From: a bacterium
GTDB taxonomy: Bacteria; Bdellovibrionota; UBA1018
Direction of reading: 5' to 3'
NCBI GenBank assembly: GCA_019751945.1
Contig: JAIEMT010000007.1
Coordinates: 2,608-66,607 of the forward strand
Length of the DNA: 64,000 nucleotides
Shown in pieces: positions 844 through 57,425 of this stretch. The notes under the pieces were generated by a model that was not told the origin of the DNA, made no database searches, and saw nothing but the letters and a program-made list of their open reading frames with translations. Within the stretch, counting starts at the first letter, position 1, and every line of letters begins with the position of its first letter. The position numbers and the translations under genes are program-made.

Positions 844-2814
844 TCACTTCTTACTGGCAAGCCCACGCTTGGGAGCAGCTTGATGCTCTTCTAAAAGCTT
901 TGCGATATCGGAGTGCCCCTTACTCGCTGCAAGCGATTGCGCGGAATCGCCCTCTTCATCTCGAGCAGTCGCGTCTGCGCCTTGCTTTAAAAGATATTGA
1001 ACAGCGCTGAGGTGGCCAAATTCAGCTGCAATGGTCAGTGGTGTGGACTGATGGTCATCGCGCTCATTGACGCCGGCACCTTTCGCAACGAGGATCTCTA
1101 AAATCTTGGCATTCCCTCGAAAGGCAGCGACGTGAATAGGTCTCTCTCCCTGGCGAGCTTTGGCTTTTACGTTTGCACCTTTTTCAATGAGGTGTGCAAC
1201 CATCTTCTCGTTTCCTGCTAGGGCCGCAACCATCAAGGGAGTCATTCCCCCATTCCGTGGATTGGGAAGTTCAATGTCTGCTCCAGCGGCTAAGAAATAA
1301 TCCACCAGCTCCATATGCCCTTGTCGGGCAGCCATATAGAGCGGGAAGTACCCGAACTCAAGCTTGCCGTTGATCTTTGTCACGGCGCCGTTTTCAATCA
1401 AGAAACGAACTCGTTCAATATTTCCAACTCGGACGGCTTCACGAAGTTCGACCTCTGGTTTGAGATAGGCGATGTAAAAGAATCCTATCAGTCCCAAGAA
1501 TGTGGCAGCCGTTGGAACTAACCAACCGCGATTTTGTTGAAAGCGATGAGTGAGTTTCCCTGCCAGCTTCGGTTCTTCAGGAAACCCTGCTTCCATTCTT
1601 TTTCTTAGAATTTCAATTCTGTCGAGCGTTGTAGGATGCGCTGCTGCCGCATTAAAAACCGTATTCGGATCTTTTTTATCGACCGAATGGTCGTTCATGA
1701 GAGTGACCTTGGTCAAAGCACTTGCGAAGGCCTCGAAGCTCGCTCCCAATTTCACTGCGTTCTCGTCCGCTTCGATTTCTTGACGACGAACGATAGTTCT
1801 CAGAAAAGAGTTCTGAGCCAAGATCGCAAATACAACTCCCATCAATACCACTGAAGCGATAGCCTCTTTCGGAAGCAGCATTGCCAAGACGACCGTAAAC
1901 AAAATATAGGGTAGAAGAACCACGAACATTCCCAGTAAACTCCACACCAAGCGCTTACGAATGTGATTCAAGGAAATGTGACTCACTTCGTGAAGAATAA
2001 TCGCTTCAAACTCTTCCTTGGTCAGCTTGGTCAGCAATGATGCGGTGAAAAAGAGAGAGGGTTTGAACCAACCCACGCCCCACTTCATTCCAGCCACCAT
2101 GGCATTGTGAACTTTGAAGCGATCCGAATTGATGATCCAGAAATTCGGCGCTTTCAAACCCGCTCGCGCAAAACAACTCGTGAGAAGCTCAATCACTTGA
2201 GGGTCCGTCACTCGTTTTGCAGGAAACATGGCCCGAATCACCACCGGAGACAGCGCGTAGATGGCAACCAAACCGCAAATAACGCCAACGGGGGTGCTGA
2301 TCCAAGCGATCGACGAGCCCAACCACTGCGGAAGGACTCCCCAGTTTTCCGCACTTCCTAGAGCGCGAGATACCGACCACATGATGGCGTAGTACGTAGC
2401 GTAGAGCCCGATGACCGAGAAAAGGCCACGCAGACCCTGAGAAAGAACTTCCCAAGCGCCAACATCAATTTTTCTCATCACCTTTTCGATGCCGAAATTG
2501 ATTTGTCCGTGAATGAACATGGCGGCGATGTAGCCGGCAAATAGATATCCCAAAACACTCTTGCCAATAATGTTGGCTGCGATGAAGGCTCCGACAAAGA
2601 AACAAATCTGTCCGAGTGTTGCTGCAAACATCACTTGGCGAGACTGATCGAGAACTTCAGCAGTAGCACCTTCTTTAGCGCCATCCGAATTTTGCTTCAG
2701 GAACCAGCTCCCCCACCAAGCGTGAAGCAGAATCAATGCGCCGGCACTCCAGATGCAAATCCAAAAGAGTTTTTCAGTAAGCGGATGTGAGCTCAATGCG
2801 AGGGACCCTCGCAT
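844..2814 (-). CDS. Multi-pass membrane M48 (HtpX/Ste24-like) zinc metallopeptidase with C-terminal ankyrin-repeat domain
   Basis: 656 aa with several hydrophobic TM segments. HEXXH zinc site ILHEVSHISLNH is followed by EIEADENA (third-ligand Glu), typical of M48. The C-terminal ~230 aa hold about 5 ankyrin repeats (GMTPLMVAALAGNEKMVAHLIEKGANV; RPIHVAAFRGNAKILEILVAKGAGV; STPLTIAAEFGHLSAVQYLLKQGAD). Confidence 0.65.
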   Translation of the reverse strand: MRGSLALSSHPLTEKLFWICIWSAGALILLHAWWGSWFLKQNSDGAKEGATAEVLDQSRQVMFAATLGQICFFVGAFIAANIIGKSVLGYLFAGYIAAMFIHGQINFGIEKVMRKIDVGAWEVLSQGLRGLFSVIGLYATYYAIMWSVSRALGSAENWGVLPQWLGSSIAWISTPVGVICGLVAIYALSPVVIRAMFPAKRVTDPQVIELLTSCFARAGLKAPNFWIINSDRFKVHNAMVAGMKWGVGWFKPSLFFTASLLTKLTKEEFEAIILHEVSHISLNHIRKRLVWSLLGMFVVLLPYILFTVVLAMLLPKEAIASVVLMGVVFAILAQNSFLRTIVRRQEIEADENAVKLGASFEAFASALTKVTLMNDHSVDKKDPNTVFNAAAAHPTTLDRIEILRKRMEAGFPEEPKLAGKLTHRFQQNRGWLVPTAATFLGLIGFFYIAYLKPEVELREAVRVGNIERVRFLIENGAVTKINGKLEFGYFPLYMAARQGHMELVDYFLAAGADIELPNPRNGGMTPLMVAALAGNEKMVAHLIEKGANVKAKARQGERPIHVAAFRGNAKILEILVAKGAGVNERDDHQSTPLTIAAEFGHLSAVQYLLKQGADATARDEEGDSAQSLAASKGHSDIAKLLEEHQAAPKRGLASKK

Positions 2815-2842
2815 TACGTATCGGGTTTAGAGCGCCTCAGGA

Positions 2843-48930: not shown

Positions 48931-50046
48931 ATGCATTCTAACTCGGGGAAGTCTTTCTTTGGGTTAATGATCACAGGAGGCCTCCTGGCCTGCCTGGCAG
49001 GCGGACTTTACTTTGCGTACTACGCCTTGATGCCCGCAAAAGTAGGCCTCGATCGCCCTGAAGATAACATCATCATTCTCGTTAAAAAGGGGCAAAGTGG
49101 CCGCGAAATCGCCACCTTCTTAGCCAGCAAAAACATCGTTTCGAGCGGCCGAAAATTTCTGATGATTGGGAAGTTTTTGGGCAAGGAAAACAGCATTCGC
49201 GTGGGCGAATATCAAGTCTCTCCCACCATGACCCCCATGAAAATTTGGTCGGTCATCACGAGCGGTGTCAGCCTGAGCCACCCCATCACAGTCCGTGAAG
49301 GCGAGAACATGTACGAGATCGCCGATGACATCGAAAGTAAGGGCCTGGGAACCAAGAAGGAGTTCCTTCAACTCTGTAAAAGTCGCGTCCTAATGCAGAA
49401 ACTCGACTTCAAGGAACCCTACCCGGTTTCCCTGGAAGGGTATCTTTTCCCGGAAACCTACTTCTTCAACCGCAGCATGAGCGCCGAAGAAATGATTAAG
49501 CAGATGGTTAAAAAGTTTCAGAGCGTCTGGACTCCGGAACTCGCGAAGCGCGCAGAGGACATGCGACTCACCAAACACCAAGTGGTCACGCTAGCGTCGA
49601 TTGTTGAAAAAGAAACGGGCGCTCCGAGCGAGCGGCCTCTGATTAGCTCTGTTTTCCACAATCGCCTGAACAAGAAGATGCGCCTTCAAAGCGATCCCAC
49701 GACGATCTACGGAATCTGGGAACAGTATAAAGGAAACTTGCATCGCAAGGACCTCCACACCCCCACGCCTTTTAATACCTACACCGTCGCGGCGCTTCCT
49801 TTGGGACCCATTTCGAATCCGGGACGAGAGGCGATCCGAGCAGCCCTATTTCCAGCTCAAAGCGACTTTCTCTATTTTGTCTCTCATAATGACGGGACCC
49901 ATCAGTTCTCTAAGACTTTCGCAGAACACAACAATGCTGTAATCAAGTTTCAGAAGGACCCGAACGCCCGAAAGGGAAAGAGCTGGCGTGACTTGAAAAA
50001 GAACAAGAGCCAGGCCCCCGCTTCGAAGCGAAGACAATCGAGTTAA
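48931..50046 (+). CDS. mltG: Endolytic murein transglycosylase (YceG-like)
   Basis: 371 aa. N-terminal TM helix, then a YceG-like domain (HPITVREGENMYEIAD...SVFHNRLNKKMRLQSDPTTIYG). Confidence 0.75.
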   Translation: MHSNSGKSFFGLMITGGLLACLAGGLYFAYYALMPAKVGLDRPEDNIIILVKKGQSGREIATFLASKNIVSSGRKFLMIGKFLGKENSIRVGEYQVSPTMTPMKIWSVITSGVSLSHPITVREGENMYEIADDIESKGLGTKKEFLQLCKSRVLMQKLDFKEPYPVSLEGYLFPETYFFNRSMSAEEMIKQMVKKFQSVWTPELAKRAEDMRLTKHQVVTLASIVEKETGAPSERPLISSVFHNRLNKKMRLQSDPTTIYGIWEQYKGNLHRKDLHTPTPFNTYTVAALPLGPISNPGREAIRAALFPAQSDFLYFVSHNDGTHQFSKTFAEHNNAVIKFQKDPNARKGKSWRDLKKNKSQAPASKRRQSS

Positions 50047-51542
50047 TGCGAATTGCCCTCATTGATCTAGGAACCAACTCCGTACGTTTTGACGTCCACC
50101 AATTCGGACCCGGTACACGCGTTCGTCTTCTACATCGTGAAAAAGTCATGGTTCGACTCGGGCAAGGGGTTTTTACGGCTGGGCAGCTCGATCCCAACGC
50201 CGTTCATCGCACGATTCATTCTTTCCGTGTTTTCAAAAGAATCTGCGAAGATCTGAATGTTCGAAAGATTGTAGCGATTGCCACGAGCGCTCTTCGCGAA
50301 GCATCGGACGGTGCCCAGTTTGTAAACGCAGTTCGAGAGGCTACCGGCATCGGTATTCGCATTATTTCAGGCCCTGAAGAAGCGCGGCTCATTGCAGTTG
50401 GAATTTTAGCGAATGAGAAAGTTCCCAAAGGGACATTCGGACTGATTGATATTGGTGGCGGCAGCACTGAGATTAGCATCTGTAAAAAGAAGAAAGTAAC
50501 GTTAAGCCAGAGTTTTCCACTGGGAACAGCACGCCTTCAGCAGCTCTTTTTAAAAGGAACTCCCCCGCACCCAGATGATATCGATCAGCTCCGCCAATAC
50601 ATTCGGCAGACTTTTCATTCTCAGATGAAGAAAAAGCGTTGGCCTAAAACCAAAGATTGGCTGGGATCCAGCGGAACGGTTCGTGCGGTTGCCCGAATTC
50701 TTCGAAAGAAAAAACAAAAGCACTTCGACTTGGAAGAGCTGCATGAACTGGTGAGGGCCATGAGTAAAATGACCACCACCCAACTTCTGGGTATTCCGGG
50801 AATGGAACCCAAGCGCGTGGACATGATTCTTCCTGGCTCAATTTTATTGGAAGAAGCGGCAAAGATTTTTGGATGCAAAAAAATTACCGCCACTGAATTC
50901 TCACTTCGTCACGGACTCCTAAGAGAGCAGCTAGAGATTGCCAAGAAAACCTTCCGATCCGGCGTCGCTCTTCACTTTGCCGACATTGAAGAAAAAGCCA
51001 AAAAGATGGGTTTGGACCCAGACGGCCTGAAACAGGAAAGACAGTTTGCGGAGAAGATTTTTGACCGGTTGCGGGCCATTCATGGGCTCGGTAAGGAATG
51101 GAAACCCTACCTCGGCGCAGCCATGATGTTACGAAATGCCGGACAAGCCGTGTCGATGATTGGCCACCAAGAACACTCTCACTATATCGTTAAGAATGCG
51201 CACTTCCCCTTTGCGGAAGACTGGGAAGCAGAGCTCATCGCAAAACTCTGCCTAAATCACGAACGCGCGAAGATCGAAGCGAAGGGAATACCTTTTAAAG
51301 GAAACTTGAAACTTCGGCGCACTTTTGTGAAACTCTTAGGGATTCTTTCTCTCGCCGACGCGCTTTCACCTGAGTCGGGGCCCCCAGTAAAACTCAAAAA
51401 AGTGAGTATTCAAAAGAAGTCGATCGAGATTGCCTTTTATTCCAACAAAGATTCTGGAGATATGGAATCCCTTCGCGTCCAGCAACGCCATGCCATCTAC
51501 TACCAAGCTTTTCGACGATCCGTAGCGGCATTCCCCACTTAG
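50046..51542 (+). CDS. ppx: Exopolyphosphatase / guanosine pentaphosphate phosphohydrolase (Ppx/GppA) with C-terminal HD domain
   Basis: 498 aa. MRIALIDLGTNSVRFDV and DIGGGSTE (ASKHA fold). C-terminal HD-type region (HSHYIVKNAHF). Confidence 0.75.
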   Translation: MRIALIDLGTNSVRFDVHQFGPGTRVRLLHREKVMVRLGQGVFTAGQLDPNAVHRTIHSFRVFKRICEDLNVRKIVAIATSALREASDGAQFVNAVREATGIGIRIISGPEEARLIAVGILANEKVPKGTFGLIDIGGGSTEISICKKKKVTLSQSFPLGTARLQQLFLKGTPPHPDDIDQLRQYIRQTFHSQMKKKRWPKTKDWLGSSGTVRAVARILRKKKQKHFDLEELHELVRAMSKMTTTQLLGIPGMEPKRVDMILPGSILLEEAAKIFGCKKITATEFSLRHGLLREQLEIAKKTFRSGVALHFADIEEKAKKMGLDPDGLKQERQFAEKIFDRLRAIHGLGKEWKPYLGAAMMLRNAGQAVSMIGHQEHSHYIVKNAHFPFAEDWEAELIAKLCLNHERAKIEAKGIPFKGNLKLRRTFVKLLGILSLADALSPESGPPVKLKKVSIQKKSIEIAFYSNKDSGDMESLRVQQRHAIYYQAFRRSVAAFPT

Positions 51543-51629
51543 GAATAAAACGGCTTTTTTTGTTTACTACTGGGCTTTCTTAGGTTGTTTCTCTATGATT
51601 AAAAAGTTCGTCAATTTGGAGAACCTAGC

Positions 51630-53168
51630 TTGTCCCGGTCGGACCTTTTGGAAGTTTCATTTCTAATTCCAGCACACCGTGCTGAGTCTCAACTGCAAAA
51701 CACGGTTGAGAAAGTACACCACTATCTTCAATCGAACTATCCGGGATCTTTTGAAATCATTCTTGTGCCCAACGGAAATAAGCAGGCCCAAGATCTTACC
51801 CTCGAAGCTGCAGAAAAATTGTCGCAAAAGTTTCCGGAAGTAAAAACCTGCAAGACTGCATTGAAGCTCGGCGGAAAAGGCGTTGCATTAAAAAATGGAT
51901 TTTTCGCGTCTCGTGGAAAAAGAATTTTTTTCTCCGACGCCGACCTTCCCTATGACTTGAATTTCTTCGACGAAGCAAAAATCTTGATGGATCAAGGATA
52001 CGAGTTCATCACCGGGAATCGCAGACTTCCCAATAGTCGCTTTACGCTTCCGGTTTCGGTGTTACCACTTGCTTACAAGAGACATCGCCTTGGCCTAGAA
52101 TTTAATAGCCTCGCTAGAATGCTTTTTCCAATTCAGTCGCGCGATACACAAGCTGGCATCAAGGCCATGAGTCGCGCGTTTGCTGAAAAAGCTTTTCAAC
52201 GAATGATCTGCGACGGATTTCTTTTTGATGTGGAGTTTTTCTTAGTCGCCAAAGAATTTGAGACTAAACGAGCAGAACTCCCGATTCATCTTTATTTGAA
52301 CCACGAAAAAACCACCGTTCGTATCTTTCACGAAACGCTTTCTATTGGACCCATGCTGGGTCGAATTTTGAAAAATTACTATCAAGGTCATTACGGTAGG
52401 CTTTCAAGTTCAGACCCCAGTAACAATCTTCTTCCACGCAACCTCACCGTCACAGGTGATGACTGGGGAATGTCCCCCGCGATTAACCGCGGGATTCTGG
52501 ATCTCGCTCGAAGAAAAATTCTCAACCGCGTCTCGGTCATTGTGGATGCGCCGTTTGCAAGTTTTCTCATGAAAGAGCTACTTGAAATTCCTCAGGTGCA
52601 AATCGGTCTCCATTTTAATCTTACTTATCGAACCCGGTTTTCATCACCCGGCAAACTTATCGCTCATGGATTGAACCCTTTTCGGAAAAAAGGCGAATGG
52701 GAAGCCTGGGTGCGCTCAGAGTTCTCAAGGCAGCTCGAAAAACTCTTCGGACTCATTCCCACCGTTTCTCATATTGACGGCCATCACCACGTTCATATTT
52801 ATCCTGGCATCGTAGAACAGATCGTACCCCTCGCTAAAGCGAGGGGCGTTCTAGATATGCGTTTACCGGCCGATCCCGCACTGTGGAAAACTCCGAAGGT
52901 CTTGCTGCTCATCTTTTCTCTTTGGGCCAAGTTTCAATTTGATCGAAACGGAATCAAATATAAGCCCTGTTTTTATCCGCAATCAAAAGACTTCGAGTCG
53001 GGCAATCGTCTTTATCGAGCGCTTGCAAATAAACAGGGCTACGAAATCATTCTCCACCCAGCTGACGAGGATGACTTAAAAGCAAACGCTTGCGAAGACT
53101 CCTACACCTATCAACGTGTCACTGAGTTCAAAGCCTTTGGAAATATTTTAGGGAACTCAGGGGCCTAA
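51630..53168 (+). CDS. Fusion: GT2 polyprenyl-phosphate sugar transferase (DPM1/ArnC-like) + YdjC/ChbG-type carbohydrate deacetylase
   Basis: 512 aa. N-terminal half has GT2 motifs (FFSDADLPY as DXD; DTQAGIK, compare D-T/S-Q-x-G-F-K of ArnC/DPM1). C-terminal half has YdjC signatures (TGDDWGMSPAINRGIL, compare NADDFG; SHIDGHHHVH, compare HxDxHxHxH). Confidence 0.6.
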   Translation: MSRSDLLEVSFLIPAHRAESQLQNTVEKVHHYLQSNYPGSFEIILVPNGNKQAQDLTLEAAEKLSQKFPEVKTCKTALKLGGKGVALKNGFFASRGKRIFFSDADLPYDLNFFDEAKILMDQGYEFITGNRRLPNSRFTLPVSVLPLAYKRHRLGLEFNSLARMLFPIQSRDTQAGIKAMSRAFAEKAFQRMICDGFLFDVEFFLVAKEFETKRAELPIHLYLNHEKTTVRIFHETLSIGPMLGRILKNYYQGHYGRLSSSDPSNNLLPRNLTVTGDDWGMSPAINRGILDLARRKILNRVSVIVDAPFASFLMKELLEIPQVQIGLHFNLTYRTRFSSPGKLIAHGLNPFRKKGEWEAWVRSEFSRQLEKLFGLIPTVSHIDGHHHVHIYPGIVEQIVPLAKARGVLDMRLPADPALWKTPKVLLLIFSLWAKFQFDRNGIKYKPCFYPQSKDFESGNRLYRALANKQGYEIILHPADEDDLKANACEDSYTYQRVTEFKAFGNILGNSGA

Positions 53169-53171
53169 ATC

Positions 53172-54362
53172 TTGAAACTAGGAAAGCTTTCTAAAGTTCT
53201 GATCATTTTTGCTGGACTTGTCTTCTTCTATTCCACCGCTCTTTATATTGATCGCCTTCACGAAGACATTCCGAGCGATTTTAAAGTTTATTATAAAGCA
53301 TCCAATAGAATGGCCTCTCACAAATGGGACGATATCTATTCCGTCCAAGATGGAAGGATGCCTTTTAGATACTCTCCCTCCACGCTCATTCTTTTTACAC
53401 CTCTGTCCACCCTACCCAGAGTTCCCGCCAATCAAATCTGGTGCTTTTTGCAAGCTGGGCTTTTTGCTTTAGGGCTGTATTTTATTTATAGGACCCTCAA
53501 GGACCTTCGAACAGAAAATCCACTCCTGATCGTTGCAATTACTTTTCTGCTTGTTGTTCGCTATTATATGGACGCTCTGTTCTCGGGCCAAATCTTTGGA
53601 ATGATGTTTGCGGGCTTCGCTGCCGGACTTTACTTCTGGCAGCGCTCTCAACAAGCTGGTGCGAGCGCTGTGTTGTTTTTACCTGTGGCCGCAAAACTGG
53701 TTCCCGGGACAACCTACATCCTGGCTCTTTGCCAAGGTGGTTTGAAGAAAAACTGGAAAACTATTTTTGGAATTCCCGCTCTTTTAGTGGTCGTCACGAA
53801 TCTGCTACTTCTTTTCTGGACCAAGAGCTTCAGCGTCATTGGTTCGCTTTGGTATCAATGGTGCTCCGTAGTTCTCAATGACAAGGACACTTACGACGCC
53901 CGCATTTCGCGCAGCCAATCCTTTCGATCGGCTCTGTTGCGCTGGTTCGGCGAAGGTCCCCGTGTCGAGTGCTTATGGAGCTCAATCTTTGTTTTGGGGA
54001 TCGCCTTCTTAGTTTATTTGTGGGTCAGCAGAACGCCGAAAGATCCGCGTGGAAAAGCCTTGGGATATTCGTTAGCAGTTCTGGGATTTGTCATTCTCAT
54101 GCCCCAATCCCTTCCCTATGCGTTTGCGCATCTCGCTCTCCCAGTTGCGATTTTACTTTCAGAGCTTCATTCTAAAAAACTGAATCTCAAGATCATCGCC
54201 TTGATGGTGCTGTTTTTTGTGTTCTGTTCTTTGCCAGGAACTACTGTGGTTGGATTTCAAATCGCAGATGCCATTCAGATTTGGTCGATTCCCTGCCTGG
54301 TCGTAGTCGGCCTAGCTGCAATGACTGTGCGCCTCTACTGGAAGCACTCTCGGCCTCAGTGA
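53172..54362 (+). CDS. GT-C membrane glycosyltransferase (DUF2029 / GT87-like, polyprenyl-P-sugar dependent)
   Basis: 396 aa, about 10 TM segments. First periplasmic loop DFKVYYKASNRMASHKWDDIYSVQDGRMPFRYSP fits the DUF2029/PimE-type consensus (DF..Y..A...IY.....PF.YPP). Starts 4 nt after the fusion gene. Confidence 0.45.
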   Translation: MKLGKLSKVLIIFAGLVFFYSTALYIDRLHEDIPSDFKVYYKASNRMASHKWDDIYSVQDGRMPFRYSPSTLILFTPLSTLPRVPANQIWCFLQAGLFALGLYFIYRTLKDLRTENPLLIVAITFLLVVRYYMDALFSGQIFGMMFAGFAAGLYFWQRSQQAGASAVLFLPVAAKLVPGTTYILALCQGGLKKNWKTIFGIPALLVVVTNLLLLFWTKSFSVIGSLWYQWCSVVLNDKDTYDARISRSQSFRSALLRWFGEGPRVECLWSSIFVLGIAFLVYLWVSRTPKDPRGKALGYSLAVLGFVILMPQSLPYAFAHLALPVAILLSELHSKKLNLKIIALMVLFFVFCSLPGTTVVGFQIADAIQIWSIPCLVVVGLAAMTVRLYWKHSRPQ

Positions 54363-54859
54363 ATCGTAGCTCTCTTGATGGCCCCACCTAGTAAAATGAG
54401 AAGCGGAATGTGAATGAGCGACGCTAAAAAATCGACTGAAGAAAACTGGCGCAGCTTCAAAGGCGAAAGCCCGCAGGCAATGTAAATGGGCGCTCGAACA
54501 TACGGCGTGAAGCGGGTGACAAAGACAATCCAGAAGCGTCTTTTTTTTACTTTTTCTAGAGATGCCTCCACCTTGTCGGCATTTACAAACCAGACGAAAG
54601 GTTTGCGCTTCAGCGCACCCTTTCCAATATATTTCGAGAGAGAGAAAATAAATGCGTTCGCAGGCAACAACCCGATAGTAACTGCGAGCCAAGCCTCAAA
54701 GAATCCGACCCGGCCTTGACTCCAAGCCATTCCCAACGCCAGCATAATCACTTCTTCAGGAAAAATGGTGAGGATCGCTCCTTGCAAAAGAAGCCAAATC
54801 ACTAGTAAATCAATTTGCCAATGGGTCAGCTGTTGAAGCTGATGAAGAAGAGATTCCAA
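54356..54859 (-). CDS. DedA/SNARE-associated family membrane protein
   Basis: 167 aa. DedA core VTRFTPYVRAPIYIACGLS. Convergent with, and overlapping by 7 nt, the GT-C gene. Confidence 0.55.
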   Translation of the reverse strand: MESLLHQLQQLTHWQIDLLVIWLLLQGAILTIFPEEVIMLALGMAWSQGRVGFFEAWLAVTIGLLPANAFIFSLSKYIGKGALKRKPFVWFVNADKVEASLEKVKKRRFWIVFVTRFTPYVRAPIYIACGLSPLKLRQFSSVDFLASLIHIPLLILLGGAIKRATIH

Positions 54860-55327
54860 TTAGTCCCGCTTCTTTCTGACAACATCTTGAATGAGCCAAG
54901 TGAGACGAACCTGCGTTCCCACAGATTCGATTTCAACCCATCCGGCCTTCTTAATATCGATCACTGCACCCGTGAGAATTTGAACGCACTCGGGAATCCA
55001 ATCCCCATGAGAACAAGCGACGGTTAACTCGGAAGCCGACGGACCCCGCCACCAATCCGCAAATTTCTGGGCGCGGGAACGAAGACCTAGGCCTTCACCG
55101 AGTTCATCGCGGACTTCTACTTTGTCAGAAATAGCCTGAATCGTTTCCATGCACCGTTTTTTCGGACTACTCAGAAAAGTGGCCTCAGACGAGTCAAAAT
55201 AGTCGTGAAAGTACTTCGCCACTTCTTTGGCTTGTTTCTTCCCCTTGTCACTCAAGCCATTATCGACCTGGGGACCCAGAAGCTTTTCTCTATGCGCGTG
55301 GCGAATGAGCACCAGTGTTTTGCTCAA
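54860..55327 (-). CDS. Histidine phosphatase superfamily protein (SixA-like phosphohistidine phosphatase)
   Basis: 155 aa. RHG-type motif LVLIRHAHREK, overall SixA length. Overlaps the 3' end of ppk by 38 nt. Confidence 0.55.
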   Translation of the reverse strand: MSKTLVLIRHAHREKLLGPQVDNGLSDKGKKQAKEVAKYFHDYFDSSEATFLSSPKKRCMETIQAISDKVEVRDELGEGLGLRSRAQKFADWWRGPSASELTVACSHGDWIPECVQILTGAVIDIKKAGWVEIESVGTQVRLTWLIQDVVRKKRD

Positions 55328-57425
55328 GAGGTGTTCCTTTATAAACGGTGTCGGCTAGTTCTTGGAGTCGCTGCTGCGAACGAAGCGGCTCCTGTCCTGC
55401 GGCTATGCTTCGCTTCTTCCAAACGCCGTCAGAAGTGAGTTCGCGTCCTTTGACTCTATCCCCTAAATAGGCGGGGATCACTACTTTTTCTAGATGCTGG
55501 TAAAGACGCTCATCTAAAACCGGAAACGCAAGCTCTAAGCGCGAATAAAAATTTCTGGGCATCCAATCCGCGCTCGAGAGATAAAGGGTCTTCGTTGTTT
55601 CAAAAAAGTAGATTCGACTGTGCTCTAAGAATCGATCAACAATGCTGACAACCCGAATATTTTCGCTGAGGTTCTTCACTCCCGGAATCAGGGAACAGGC
55701 CCCTCTCACAATGAGGTCAATTTTCACCCCTGCCTGAGAAGCGTCATAGAGGCGCTGAATAACGGCTTCATCAACCAGAGCATTCAATTTCACGACAATT
55801 CGCCCGGGCTTTCCACTTTTCACGGCAGTGACTTCGTTATCAATCAATTGAATAATACGACGGTGAAGTTTGGTTGGCGCATGAATCAACCTCTTAAAGG
55901 CTTGAGGAATCTTTCCCCCATAAAGAGAATCAAAAAAGACGCGAGCGTCTTCACCGACAATGGGGTCGGCCGTGAGTATCGCTAAATCCGTGTACTGACG
56001 GGCCGTGACGGAATTGTAATTCCCTGTAGAGAGATGGGTGTAGCGTCTTTCAATCCCGCCCTCCATTCGCGTCACCAGAGTCACCTTGGCGTGAACTTTC
56101 AAGTCTCCAAAACCAAATGTGACCAAAACTCCCGCCTTACGAAGTTCATCAGCAAGTCGCAGATTGTTTAGTTCATCAAAGCGTGCACGAAGTTCAATGA
56201 CAACGCGCACCTTCTTACGCAAGCAAGCGGACTTCAATAGTTCGATCACCGGAGAAAGCGCATCCATTCGGTAAACGGTCATTTCAATACTGGTGACATC
56301 GGGATCTTTACAAGACGCTTCAATCCACTTCACATAGGCATCAAACGAATCGTAGGGATGATGCAGAAGAAAGTCCCGCGTGGAAAGTTGCTGAAAAATT
56401 TTTTCAGTTTTTCTGAATTCCACGGGAATCGGAGGATGCACCGGCGGATAAACCATTTCCGACCTCTCTAAAAGTTGCGCCGGCAGTATTCCCAAGGAAG
56501 ACCAAAGTCCGTTGAAGCAGTAGGTCTTCTGCGCACGGTAAACTTGTTGAGACTTTAGCTTAAAGACTCCCTGGATAGATGAAACTCTCTCCTGAGTTTT
56601 TTTGTCCCACTGCTTGCACTGAAATTGAAGACGAATGGGTCGACCTTTTTCGCGCTTCCCAAGGCCCGATCGAATGACATCGGGAATGGACTCCGAATCT
56701 TCTTCATCGAAGTCGACGGTTAAATCAGCGTCACGCGTGAGACGGATCACCACTGGGTGACCGGTGACACCAAAGGCCTCCCCCAGAAACCGCGAGAGCA
56801 ACACATCTAGGAAAAACAGGTAAGTCTTTCCAGTTCCGCTATCTGTAAAAACCAAGACAGGTTTTATTTTTTTGGGAATTCGAAACCAGCGACCGGAATC
56901 ATAAATCACGGCCGACTGAAGGTTCTCGAGCAAATTTAAATCTTTCGCCTTGTAGGTTTCAGGTGCCTGTAGCTCTGGAAGAATGTCGCGTTCAAAGGTG
57001 GCTTTAGCAGCCGCCACAAGCGATTCACTAGTTCCCAGATCGAAGACGAGTTGTACGCCCTGGGGCTCCAACTCTTTAGAAAGAGTTTCGGCGGTCTTGG
57101 ATTGATCAACAGCAAACTTTTGAACGGCATTGAGAATCTGAGTTTGGATCTGCGTGAGACGTGTGGCTGAGCTGCGTTCGCCTTTTCGCGTGGCCAACGA
57201 AATACTTCGGCGAAGTGAGGCCATTCGAATCATAAAAAATTCGTCGAGATTCGATACCGAAATGGCTAAAAATTTCACCCGCTCTAGGAGCGGGTTGCTG
57301 GCATCTTTCGCCTCGGAAAGGACGCGCTCATTAAACTGTAACCAACTGAGATCTCGATGAATGAATGGCTTTGCAGGGTCCGAGAGAAGTGGTCTGAGGC
57401 GAGGAGAAAGTCTAAAAGCGTCCAT
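55290..57425 (-). CDS. ppk: Polyphosphate kinase 1
   Basis: 711 aa. PPK1 N-terminus (FIHRDLSWLQFNERVLSEA), two PLD-like HKD-type domains (HAKVTLV). Confidence 0.85.
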   Translation of the reverse strand: MDAFRLSPRLRPLLSDPAKPFIHRDLSWLQFNERVLSEAKDASNPLLERVKFLAISVSNLDEFFMIRMASLRRSISLATRKGERSSATRLTQIQTQILNAVQKFAVDQSKTAETLSKELEPQGVQLVFDLGTSESLVAAAKATFERDILPELQAPETYKAKDLNLLENLQSAVIYDSGRWFRIPKKIKPVLVFTDSGTGKTYLFFLDVLLSRFLGEAFGVTGHPVVIRLTRDADLTVDFDEEDSESIPDVIRSGLGKREKGRPIRLQFQCKQWDKKTQERVSSIQGVFKLKSQQVYRAQKTYCFNGLWSSLGILPAQLLERSEMVYPPVHPPIPVEFRKTEKIFQQLSTRDFLLHHPYDSFDAYVKWIEASCKDPDVTSIEMTVYRMDALSPVIELLKSACLRKKVRVVIELRARFDELNNLRLADELRKAGVLVTFGFGDLKVHAKVTLVTRMEGGIERRYTHLSTGNYNSVTARQYTDLAILTADPIVGEDARVFFDSLYGGKIPQAFKRLIHAPTKLHRRIIQLIDNEVTAVKSGKPGRIVVKLNALVDEAVIQRLYDASQAGVKIDLIVRGACSLIPGVKNLSENIRVVSIVDRFLEHSRIYFFETTKTLYLSSADWMPRNFYSRLELAFPVLDERLYQHLEKVVIPAYLGDRVKGRELTSDGVWKKRSIAAGQEPLRSQQRLQELADTVYKGTPLEQNTGAHSPRA

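Follow-up and report, generated by a model that had tools for sequence, protein, structure and literature searches.

The fusion protein encoded at 51630–53168 and the GT87 protein encoded at 53172–54362 are interpreted as a two-gene operon for lipid-carrier amino-sugar glycosylation, with the adjoining DedA protein as a bystander, a reading to which we give a probability of about 60%. The window, a 64-kb stretch of DNA, comes from an uncultured Bdellovibrionota MAG (MBY0470192.1, recorded only as ‘bacterium’) and not from a characterised Bdellovibrio. An ORF check of the window verified the three open reading frames at the coordinates first given for them, and their domain matches are far beyond chance. 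The fusion gene begins with a TTG codon at 51630, preceded by a GGAG ribosome-binding site about 10 nt before it. A 3-nt spacer separates its stop codon from the GT87 gene, so that the GT87 start is the fourth nucleotide past the stop, which is the 4-nt step originally noted. The features are as follows.

51630–53168, forward strand: GT2-YdjC fusion protein, 512 aa
51630–52415, forward strand: GT2 (GT-A) domain, residues 1–262
51936–51944, forward strand: DAD, GT2 domain, residues 103–105
52017–52025, forward strand: NRR, GT2 domain, residues 130–132
52053–52124, forward strand: JM1-like helix, GT2 domain, residues 142–165
52143–52163, forward strand: DTQAGIK, GT2 domain, residues 172–178
52317–52382, forward strand: JM2-like amphipathic helix, GT2 domain, residues 230–251
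52437–53144, forward strand: YdjC/ChbG-type metal-dependent deacetylase domain, residues 270–505
52458–52469, forward strand: DDWG, YdjC domain, residues 277–280
52605–52625, forward strand: GLHFNLT, YdjC domain, residues 326–332
52770–52796, forward strand: HIDGHHHVH, YdjC domain, residues 381–389
52899–52946, forward strand: hydrophobic helix, YdjC domain, residues 424–439, a gap in soluble ChbG (profile alignment)
53172–54362, forward strand: GT87 protein, 396 aa
53277–53294, forward strand: DFKVYY, GT87 protein, residues 36–41, with candidate catalytic base D36 and Y40
53361–53378, forward strand: PFRYSP, GT87 protein, residues 64–69
53586–53591, forward strand: G139-Q140, GT87 protein
53694–53696, forward strand: K175, GT87 protein
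54356–54859, reverse strand: DedA protein, 167 aa

The fusion protein consists of two domains joined by a disordered linker (residues 259–266) in its AF2 model (pLDDT 87.4). Its Foldseek matches divide between GtrB, ArnC and DPMS structures and ChbG/YdjC structures. Pfam places Glycos_transf_2 at residues 10–140 (E 2.6e-11, 44 bits, cutoff 23) and YdjC at residues 272–503 (E 1.6e-34, 120 bits, cutoff 30). The domain scan thereby bears out the original prediction of a GT2 fused to a YdjC deacetylase, and the motifs quoted for it (DAD, DTQAGIK, DDWG and HIDGHHHVH) are present at verified coordinates. No transmembrane (TM) segment was found in the fusion protein, the highest Kyte–Doolittle 19-mer being 1.18, whereas GtrB, ArnC and PfDPMS each have a TM anchor; its predicted location is peripheral, at the cytoplasmic face. 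We propose that it acts as a polyprenyl-phosphate HexNAc transferase and a polyprenyl-P-HexNAc N-deacetylase.

Searching the PDB with a profile of the GT2 domain gives DPMS (5mlz, E 5.6e-11) and GtrB (E 4.6e-10) as top matches, and the best Foldseek matches are GtrB (9nyf, 2.4e-10) and ArnC (9bhc, 6.5e-10), with DPMS also matched. The DADL sequence (D103xD105) aligns with D94xD96 of GtrB. R131 aligns with GtrB R122, a ligand of the acceptor phosphate whose mutation abolishes activity. Eight residues (D103, D105, N130, R131, R132, R151, D172 and G176) are invariant across 16 stand-alone GT2 homologues. Sequence and fold support placing the domain in the polyprenyl-phosphate glycosyltransferase class, on a GtrB/DPMS profile alignment that spans only residues ~14–152; the acceptor-binding C-terminal half has no sequence alignment to either protein.

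The YdjC domain belongs to what NCBI names the ‘ChbG/HpnK family deacetylase’, and its motifs align with DDFG, GMHF and HIDSHHHVH of ChbG (pdb 7vi8). The metal and catalytic residues, whose absence would have counted against the original prediction, are invariant in the alignment: every complete member of an 84-sequence set, whatever its architecture, keeps D277, D278, H328, D383, H385 and H387, two truncated members being gapped at D383, H385 and H387.

The 396-aa protein matches Pfam GT87/DUF2029 (E 5.5e-15, 56 bits, cutoff 25), and its AF2 model is of high confidence (pLDDT 95.5, pTM 0.93). Foldseek places PimE first (9dm7/9dm5, TM 0.63–0.67), followed by GPI-MT-I, ArnT and ALG3/6/9. The model supports a GT-C(A) fold nearest PimE and no transporter fold, so the original assignment to the DUF2029/GT87 type holds. 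PimE is a mycobacterial GT87 enzyme, a polyprenyl-P-mannose-dependent α-1,2-mannosyltransferase. The two proteins share only ~15% identity, but the match to the PimE profile is clear (E 1.8e-21), the Asp-x3-Tyr motif is kept, and Y67, Q140 and K175 align with the essential PimE residues Y92, Q163 and K195; D36, Y67 and K175 are invariant across 54 GT87 homologues. In contrast, the PimE residues W319, H321 and H322, which make its contacts with the transferred mannose and with the phosphate, correspond here to L314, Y316 and A317, so the donor plausibly differs from polyprenyl-P-mannose. The setting differs too: the genetic partner is a HexNAc-deacetylase fusion and not a mannose-phosphate synthase, and the host belongs to a Gram-negative lineage without PIMs.

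Comparison with other genomes ties the three domains together. Among the best 150 representatives found with the GT87 protein there are 37 GT87-GT2-YdjC, four GT87-YdjC and four GT87-GT2 polypeptides. The commonest form of the module is a GT2-methyltransferase (GT2-MT) followed by a GT87-degenerate GT2-YdjC protein, the arrangement in the window being the rarer one. The triple fusion also occurs in two cultured Bdellovibrionota strains, FG-1 and FG-2. The GT2 of the triple fusions has lost its DxD and retains R131, R132, R151 and D172. Directly upstream is an intact GT2-MT gene; this pattern fits a degenerate domain still able to bind the polyprenyl-P-sugar for deacetylation. The GT87 protein is basic at both termini, consistent with an N-in/C-in topology, in which the GT2-YdjC part of the triple fusions would lie in the cytoplasm. 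As well as these abundant triple fusions, the search for the fusion elsewhere recovered a GT2-YdjC gene whose stop codon overlaps the start of a GT87 gene at two loci (L090 and L092) with otherwise unrelated surroundings, and the GT87 of the window clusters with the partner GT87s of exactly these loci. By comparative genomics, the Rosetta-stone fusions and the conserved overlapping two-gene unit show that the GT2, YdjC and GT87 domains are functionally linked. Of the reference-genome loci, L036 (49% identity) and L041 (45%) have the closest GT2/YdjC relatives, each followed by an ArnT-like GT-C gene (PDB ArnT 1e-25; NCBIfam ArnT 1e-35), with ArnE/F-like EamA genes, encoding small transporters, in the vicinity. 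Against the link, no recognisable GT-C was found within 3 kb in 14 of the 38 YdjC loci with adequate flanks.

These comparative data strongly support the core amino-sugar pathway. The fusions, the kinship of the GT2 domain and the ArnT- and ArnE/F-like neighbours of its relatives suggest that polyprenyl-P-HexN is the most likely product of the operon and that its HexN would be transferred in the periplasm. By family membership, the GT2 domain would first transfer HexNAc (GlcNAc or GalNAc, which sequence does not distinguish) from UDP-HexNAc to polyprenyl (undecaprenyl) phosphate at the cytoplasmic face of the inner membrane. The fused YdjC domain would then remove the N-acetyl group to give polyprenyl-P-HexN, the fusion allowing the lipid-linked intermediate to pass straight from one domain to the other. 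This product would be flipped by some transporter; DedA apart, no dedicated flippase gene was found in the locus or elsewhere in the 64-kb window. Finally, the GT87-type GT-C would pass HexN on to an envelope acceptor in the periplasm, D36 serving as general base while K175 holds the leaving phosphate. The chemistry is inferred and so is the acceptor, for which the likeliest candidate is a sugar hydroxyl, either on LPS (lipid A or core) or on some other surface glycan. Lipid A itself as the target is speculation. The earlier appeal to the lipid A of Bdellovibrio is a weak analogy that does not carry over directly to this genome, an uncultured Bdellovibrionota MAG.

The nearest described systems are those of Francisella (FlmF2/NaxD/FlmK) and Bordetella (LgmA/LgmC/LgmB), each composed of an Und-P-HexNAc synthase, a YdjC-family deacetylase and an ArnT-like GT-C, and placing GalN or GlcN on lipid A phosphate; NaxD deacetylates Und-P-GalNAc. 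The same three activities in the same order (a DPM1/ArnC-like GT2, YdjC-superfamily deacetylation on the carrier, and periplasmic GT-C transfer) are proposed here, and the analogy originally drawn is reinforced by L036 and L041, which have the Flm/Lgm/Arn layout. However, in the window GT2 and YdjC form one polypeptide with no TM anchor, the GT-C is of the GT87/PimE type and not the ArnT/GT83 type, no small flippase gene is linked, and the acceptor need not be lipid A phosphate. In the Arn system of E. coli and Salmonella (ArnC, ArnD, ArnE/F and ArnT) a masked amino sugar is loaded on Und-P, unmasked at the cytoplasmic face, flipped and transferred by a GT-C. The logic is shared, and the GT2 domain has ArnC among its best structural matches, but Arn uses Ara4N and the GT83 transferase ArnT, and its CE4-type ArnD removes a formyl group where the YdjC domain would remove an acetyl group. 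Three-component periplasmic glycosylation systems (GtrB/GtrA/Gtr*, and the pentofuranose systems of Kelly et al., 2024) similarly combine a polyprenyl-P-sugar synthase, a flippase and a GT-C, and the GT2 domain finds its top fold match in GtrB. These systems transfer neutral sugars without deacetylation, and their loci include a gene for a dedicated flippase of the GtrA, SMR or MATE type. A literature search found no paper tying YdjC to GT-C or polyprenyl enzymes and no description of such a system, in agreement with the claim of an apparently undescribed variant. Amino-sugar systems acting on lipid A confer polymyxin resistance, and the operon most likely represents a variant of these systems that is so far unstudied.

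The best of the alternatives, though an unlikely one, is a GPI- or hopanoid-like pathway. Here the GT2 would act as HpnI, placing GlcNAc directly on a membrane lipid (diacylglycerol, phospholipid, ceramide or hopanoid), YdjC would deacetylate it as HpnK or PIG-L does, and GT87 would mannosylate the flipped GlcN-lipid with separately made polyprenyl-P-mannose, as do PIG-M and PimE. The product of the fusion protein would thus be the acceptor of GT87 and not its donor. Characterised GT87 enzymes are indeed all polyprenyl-P-mannose-dependent mannosyltransferases acting on glycolipid acceptors, and GPI mannosyltransferase I ranks third among the structural matches of the GT87 protein (profile E 5e-5). 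The mannose-contacting histidines of PimE are not conserved, however, and the locus has no linked polyprenyl-P-mannose synthase. HpnI and HpnK place GlcNAc on bacteriohopanetetrol and then deacetylate it, likewise pairing a GT2 with a YdjC-family deacetylase on a membrane lipid; we know of no GT-C partner for them. The fusion protein does match NCBIfam HpnK, but at 52 bits, far under the cutoff of 232.6 and more weakly than ChbG, and HpnI is not among its matches. The missing TM anchor and the unalignable acceptor half of the GT2 would suit a direct lipid acceptor, but the best sequence and fold matches of this domain are GtrB, DPMS and ArnC, with the phosphate-binding arginine kept. Its close relatives, moreover, pair with ArnT-like GT-C and ArnE/F-like flippase genes, a layout known to us only for Und-P-aminosugar donors.

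A slimmer chance is given to DedA as a dedicated component, either flipping polyprenyl-P-HexN or recycling polyprenyl phosphate. As originally described, its gene is convergent with the GT87 gene, overlapping it by 7 nt, and the protein matches Pfam VTT_dom (E 8e-17). The arrangement is retained in all contigs of the species (L002–L004), the window holds no other flippase candidate, and DedA proteins are documented undecaprenyl-phosphate flippases tied to polymyxin resistance (PMC12893004). Against this, the adjacency is seen only in this species: in none of 75 related genome loci does a DedA gene lie within 8 kb of the module, the nearest two-gene orthologues (L090 and L092) have none either, and the relatives with an ArnT-like GT-C carry EamA/ArnEF-type proteins nearby instead. 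The nearest DedA homologues (44–53% identity) sit in unrelated gene contexts. The gene is on the opposite strand as the last of a ppk-hisP-dedA string, abutting hisP and ppk, and the NCBIfam UptA match is weak (54 bits, cutoff 250). The protein is also C-terminally short by about 30–45 residues and lacks the last TM helix, which is present in all five closest homologues. DedA is probably no more than a neighbour, contrary to its inclusion in the system as first predicted.

A secreted polysaccharide synthase-deacetylase of the PNAG or Nod-factor type, in which the GT2 would polymerise GlcNAc for partial deacetylation by YdjC, is highly improbable: the pairing recalls PgaC/PgaB and NodC/NodB and there is a weak NCBIfam PgaC/IcaA match (E 4.8e-7, 29 bits), but this is far under its cutoff (422), GT2 synthases of the processive kind are integral to the membrane and have CE4 partner deacetylases, unlike the TM-free YdjC fusion, and the recurrent fusion to a GT-C is left unexplained.

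The GT2-YdjC fusion and GT87 genes, together the module, lie on the forward strand and are met by dedA from the opposite strand. The three open reading frames are exactly as the original prediction described them, the motifs that it quoted were all present at verified coordinates, and Pfam confirms the domains of each protein:

Features of the locus in the window
51630-53168, + strand: fusion protein, 512 aa; Pfam Glycos_transf_2 at residues 10-140 (E 2.6e-11) and YdjC at residues 272-503 (E 1.6e-34)
53172-54362, + strand: GT87 protein, 396 aa; Pfam GT87/DUF2029 (E 5.5e-15)
54356-54859, - strand: DedA/VTT-domain protein, 167 aa (E 8e-17)

The fusion gene begins with a TTG codon at 51630, preceded by a GGAG sequence ~10 nt 5' of the start. 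Its stop codon is separated from the start of the GT87 gene by a 3-nt spacer, and the convergent GT87 and dedA genes overlap by 7 nt. Upstream of the module is ppx on the + strand, while a SixA-like histidine phosphatase, ppk, ogt and dnaX lie downstream; within 50046-57425 the module lies between ppx (+) and a string of ppk, SixA-like phosphatase and dedA (-). A promoter and terminator scan of the locus gave counts that were not above those of shuffled sequence.

The source organism is an uncultured Bdellovibrionota MAG and not a characterised Bdellovibrio, its Rho clustering at at least 90% identity with those of Bdellovibrionota MAGs. In sister species, recognised by a Rho at least 90% identical, none of the ppx, module, ppk, SixA-like or dedA genes is found between mltG and ogt; they carry a stand-alone GT87 gene at this site instead (L086-L089). 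It was considered as a syntenic ortholog and rejected, the proteins being distant paralogs with ~31% identity over ~88 aa. The idea that the module had landed between ppx and ppk and clipped dedA was also pursued, with no relic of a DedA tail and no GC or GC3 anomaly being found. Elsewhere in the window (847-2826, -) is a 660-aa protein with a Peptidase_M48 domain, ~5 hydrophobic segments and C-terminal ankyrin repeats, an architecture unusual for a bacterium.

When a profile of the GT2 domain and its stand-alone homologs was compared with the PDB, the two best GT2 structures were Pyrococcus DPMS (E 5.6e-11) and Synechocystis GtrB (E 4.6e-10). AF2 models the fusion protein (pLDDT 87.4) as two domains joined by a disordered linker at residues 259-266. 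The closest folds to the GT2 domain (E 2e-10 to 5e-9) are GtrB (2.4e-10), ArnC (6.5e-10) and DPMS (5e-9), the structural alignment to GtrB extending over ~240 columns with an rmsd of 3.9. The DxD motif of the GT-A fold is formed by D103-A-D105-L, which aligns with the DADL of DPMS and GtrB (D94xD96). R131 of the 'NRR' sequence aligns with R122 ('TRR') of GtrB, described in the GtrB structure paper as an essential ligand of the acceptor phosphate; R131 is invariant in stand-alone GT2 homologs, near-invariant across the other architectures and kept in 34/37 triple fusions. No equivalent of GtrB R200 could be assigned, because the C-terminal half of the GT2 domain does not align by sequence. The model shows the arrangement of two amphipathic juxtamembrane helices, JM1 inside the GT-A domain and JM2 behind it: a helix (142-165; four K/R, with R151 invariant) follows the NRR strand as an insertion, and a second helix (230-251; hydrophobic moment 1.22) takes the JM2 position at the end of the domain. 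From its sequence and model the domain is assigned to the polyprenyl-phosphate glycosyltransferase class, and sugar transfer to polyprenyl phosphate is predicted.

A C-terminal TM anchor is present in GtrB, ArnC and PfDPMS but absent from human DPM1, and the fusion protein likewise has no hydrophobic segment that could provide one (maximum KD 19-mer 1.18). The feature is not universal, as the GtrB authors point out that a separate chain can supply the TM part, citing the human DPMS complex. The fusion protein would be a peripheral membrane enzyme comparable to the DPM1 subunit of that complex.

The deacetylase half matches the Pfam YdjC model (PF04794) with 120.4 bits against a cutoff of 29.7 and over 254/266 model positions. 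Absence of the YdjC metal-binding residues on alignment had been named as grounds for refuting the assignment; instead D277, D278, H328, D383, H385, H387 and H389 align with the DDxG, GxH and HxDxHxHxH motifs of ChbG (7vi8), and all seven are invariant or near-invariant in 84 homologs of every architecture. By these residues the domain is intact and, as the fusion protein carries the complete 'active' motif set, sugar transfer and deacetylation could plausibly both be performed by this one protein. A hydrophobic helix at 424-439 (VLLLIFSLWAKFQFDR) aligns to a gap in soluble ChbG and fits a membrane-bound substrate, which is only suggestive. With the gene context of close relatives, this helix lends indirect support to a putative NaxD/LgmC-like activity on polyprenyl-linked HexNAc.

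The GT87 protein scores 56.2 bits against PF09594/DUF2029 (cutoff 25) over residues 65-306, and its AF2 model has a pLDDT of 95.5 and a pTM of 0.93. Foldseek ranks PimE first (TM 0.63-0.67), followed by GPI mannosyltransferase I, PIG-U, ArnT, ALG3, ALG6 and ALG9, in agreement with the GT-C fold, here GT-C(A), foreseen for 53172-54362. Transporters, which would have spoken against a glycosyltransferase, were matched only at a probability below 0.25, so the 396-aa protein does not model as one. The family profile matches PimE with an E-value of 1.8e-21 and aligns Y67, Q140 and K175 with PimE Y92, Q163 and K195, mutation of any of which abolishes PimE activity. The catalytic aspartate of PimE, D58, lies at the tip of the first periplasmic juxtamembrane helix and is stabilised by Y62, and K195 binds phosphate. 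D36 of the GT87 protein starts a helix (36-48) just after TM1 in the model, and the D36...Y40 spacing equals that of D58...Y62; D36 is the probable D58 equivalent, an equivalence based on spacing and not on a printed alignment. D36, Y67 and K175 are invariant in 54 homologs. The PimE residues of the site for the transferred mannose and phosphate, W319, H321 and H322, are replaced by L314, Y316 and A317, which makes a donor sugar other than the mannose of PimE plausible, and the genetic partner GT2-YdjC predicts that the donor is HexN.

A word-indexed homolog search with the GT87 protein gave only 2 matches, and an exhaustive HMMER search was used instead. This returned 297 cluster representatives, 68 of them with E<1e-30. 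When architectures were assigned to the best 150 of the 297 with local domain profiles, 37 were single polypeptides of the form GT87-GT2-YdjC, with four each of GT87-YdjC and GT87-GT2. Scanning 185,579 species, each represented by one genome, gave 75 distinct loci, mostly in Bdellovibrionota (Bacteriovoracaceae, Oligoflexia and Bdellovibrionales MAGs), the remainder coming from Thermoanaerobaculia, Gemmatimonadota, Planctomycetota and Thermodesulfobacteriota. The commonest layout, at ~28 loci, is a GT2-methyltransferase (GT2-MT) gene followed by a GT87-GT2*-YdjC triple fusion, GT2* being a GT2 domain without the DxD motif; the Gemmatimonadota loci have GT87, GT2 and YdjC as three separate adjacent genes. 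The three domains are functionally linked.

The search for the fusion in other genomes also recovered the layout of the window, GT2-YdjC followed by GT87, in the nearest orthologous loci. In L090 (P0004) and L092 (P0008) the start codon of the second gene overlaps the stop codon of the first, with wholly different genes on either side. The window GT87 clusters with exactly the partner GT87s of these two loci. This recurrence in differing flanks, together with the clustering, indicates that the two genes are a unit that moves together. A side observation concerns L092 (6789-8838), in which an OmpR-type response regulator and histidine kinase lie divergently and directly upstream of GT2-YdjC; this single case recalls the control of lipid A modification by PmrAB/PhoPQ.

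The closest GT2/YdjC relatives in a reference-genome scan are L036 (49%) and L041 (45%):

Lgm/Flm-like loci of the closest GT2/YdjC relatives
L036:7905-11587 and L041:7920-14021 (Thermodesulfobacteriota / 'delta proteobacterium' MAGs): GT2, YdjC in an overlapping +1 frame, ArnT-like GT-C, small EamA (ArnE/F-like) proteins

Each appears to be a complete Lgm/Flm-like operon, with the layout of the experimentally defined Francisella FlmF2/FlmK and NaxD and Bordetella LgmA/LgmB/LgmC systems, of which NaxD deacetylates undecaprenyl-P-GalNAc. As both genomes show the same +1 frame change, overlapping genes are a likelier explanation than a sequencing error. The GT-C immediately after GT2/YdjC is ArnT-like (Pfam PMT_2/PMT; NCBIfam lipid IV(A) Ara4N transferase, E 1e-35; PDB ArnT, E 1e-25), and the small EamA-type proteins are encoded close by. 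In the window the partner is instead a GT87, so that the same GT2/YdjC lineage is combined with two GT-C families, the pattern to expect if a lipid-linked amino-sugar donor came from GT2/YdjC and the choice of acceptor from the GT-C. Among the 38 YdjC loci flanked by at least 3 kb on both sides, a GT87 lies within 3 kb in 20/38 and an ArnT-like protein in 4/38; no recognisable GT-C was present within that distance in 14/38.

In the triple fusions the DxD motif is replaced by N/H-P/L-E-Q-P, D103 being kept in 0/37, and R131, R132, R151 and D172 are kept in 33-35/37. An intact GT2-MT gene nearly always precedes the triple-fusion gene. The cultured Bdellovibrionota strains FG-1 and FG-2 (L018, L049) are among the carriers of this arrangement. 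The simplest reading is that GT2* would have lost UDP-sugar binding but would still hold the polyprenyl-phosphate-sugar and present it to the deacetylase. The genes that recur around these fusions are as follows:

Recurrent genes at the triple-fusion loci
L001:5120-9237 and ~28 other loci (e.g. L006, L007, L014-L016, L018): GT2-MT gene, then GT87-GT2*-YdjC triple fusion
L001:9234-10514 and 20 other loci (alignment A5): fam2, a multi-TM family of ~430-450 aa, directly downstream of the triple fusions, with which it apparently shares an operon
L042:69-1250 and 20 other loci: 360-aa protein, unannotated, that has an 'HCC' motif and gives a faint MtaA-like match (E 0.13), just upstream of GT2-MT

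The first TM helix of the fam2 proteins is followed by an invariant D-M-E-x-K-E-D-E loop that resembles the acidic motif of GT-C enzymes; the family gave no match in Pfam, NCBIfam or the PDB. A role as a second transferase or as the missing flippase is conceivable. A relationship to GT87 was considered and dropped, there being no detectable similarity (hhalign probability 8.5%).

The most likely course of the reaction has four steps, and builds on the observed domain identities, conservation of catalytic residues, folds and genetic linkage. The GT2 domain would transfer a sugar, presumably from UDP-HexNAc, to a lipid acceptor that is probably polyprenyl phosphate, giving polyprenyl-P-HexNAc; the YdjC domain would deacetylate this putative substrate to polyprenyl-P-HexN; a transporter would flip the product across the membrane; and GT87, with D36 as the base and K175 on the phosphate, would move HexN from this predicted donor to a periplasmic acceptor. 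The ortholog at L091 sits in a surface-polysaccharide gene cluster, and lipid A therefore remains one candidate acceptor among several.

A bolder and rather unlikely elaboration is that GT87 replaces the ArnT-type enzyme because the acceptor would be a sugar hydroxyl and not a lipid A phosphate, these Bdellovibrionota placing a cationic hexosamine on phosphate-poor or glycosylated lipid A or LPS core by a previously unknown GT87 activity. The catalytically dead GT2 of GT87-GT2*-YdjC would act as a receptor for the polyprenyl-P-sugar, channelling the carrier lipid between the deacetylase and the transferase in one membrane-spanning polypeptide; at loci of this form, N-methylation by the partner GT2-methyltransferase may also occur. 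The main rival to the four-step sequence is a GPI/hopanoid-like route, in which GT2/YdjC would build a GlcN-lipid that GT87 then mannosylates; both the PI-GT character of the GT2 domain and the ArnT/ArnEF-type contexts in which the close relatives lie argue against this route, which we consider improbable. HpnI/HpnK and PgaC readings were rejected, with NCBIfam scores far below cutoffs and no TM segments.

The original prediction also drew the DedA protein into the system. The convergent overlap with the GT87 gene is real, although the adjacency, tempting to over-read, is here no evidence of involvement. Neither the 75 genome loci (0/75) nor L090-L092 have a dedA gene within 8 kb of the module, and nothing in the evidence gathered ties the window DedA specifically to the module. 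The gene is on the opposite strand, its start abutting the stop of hisP, the SixA-like phosphatase gene, which in turn overlaps ppk. The closest DedA homologs (44-53% identity) adjoin PLD, YebC, PFK and other unrelated genes, and a metagenome scan with DedA found only the same species plus one 1-kb contig. The protein has 167 aa against 195-213 aa in the five closest homologs, whose last 30-45 residues, including a TM helix and the basic tail, have no counterpart in it; its reading frame stops exactly at the overlap with the 3' end of the GT87 gene. Against the NCBIfam UptA models it reaches 54 and 29 bits (cutoffs 250 and 300), which, with the missing C-terminal TM helix and the lack of linkage in the 75 loci, places it outside UptA. 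The window DedA is probably a bystander; as DedA proteins are real undecaprenyl-phosphate flippases (PMC12893004), some contribution of this copy is conceivable. No ArnE/F-like or other small flippase gene was found in the 64-kb window.

The addition of amino sugars (Ara4N, GalN, GlcN) from lipid carriers is the main Gram-negative route to a lower envelope charge and to resistance against polymyxins and host cationic peptides. To our knowledge all characterised systems of this kind use an ArnT/GT83-type transferase. The window locus and ~60 species-level relatives would couple the same donor-making chemistry to a GT87/PimE-type transferase, and GT87 would no longer be confined to mannosyltransferases of actinobacteria but would include an enzyme with a probable hexosamine donor. 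Flm, Lgm and Arn already follow this logic; what is new is the fusion, the GT87-type transferase, the degenerate GT2* of the dominant form and the methyltransferase partner. The locus had been called an apparently undescribed variant, and a full-text literature search bore this out, no paper being found that brings YdjC together with GT-C or polyprenyl enzymes; NCBI annotation is generic ('ChbG/HpnK family deacetylase', 'glycosyltransferase 87 family protein'). The natural GT2-YdjC and GT87-GT2*-YdjC fusions tie all steps together and are attractive for structures of a polyprenyl-linked intermediate passing between active sites. The family suggests that predatory and environmental lineages (Bdellovibrionota, Thermoanaerobaculia, Gemmatimonadota and Planctomycetota) have an envelope modification that is still uncharacterised.

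The methyltransferase partner of the triple fusions is of the SAM-dependent class I and could possibly N- or O-methylate the sugar; the window system has no methyltransferase. Methionine and one-carbon genes recur just upstream of GT2-MT, with MetH in 23 loci and MTHFR in 7, and these genes, like that of the 360-aa protein, may serve to supply the methyltransferase with SAM or simply reflect synteny within the lineage.
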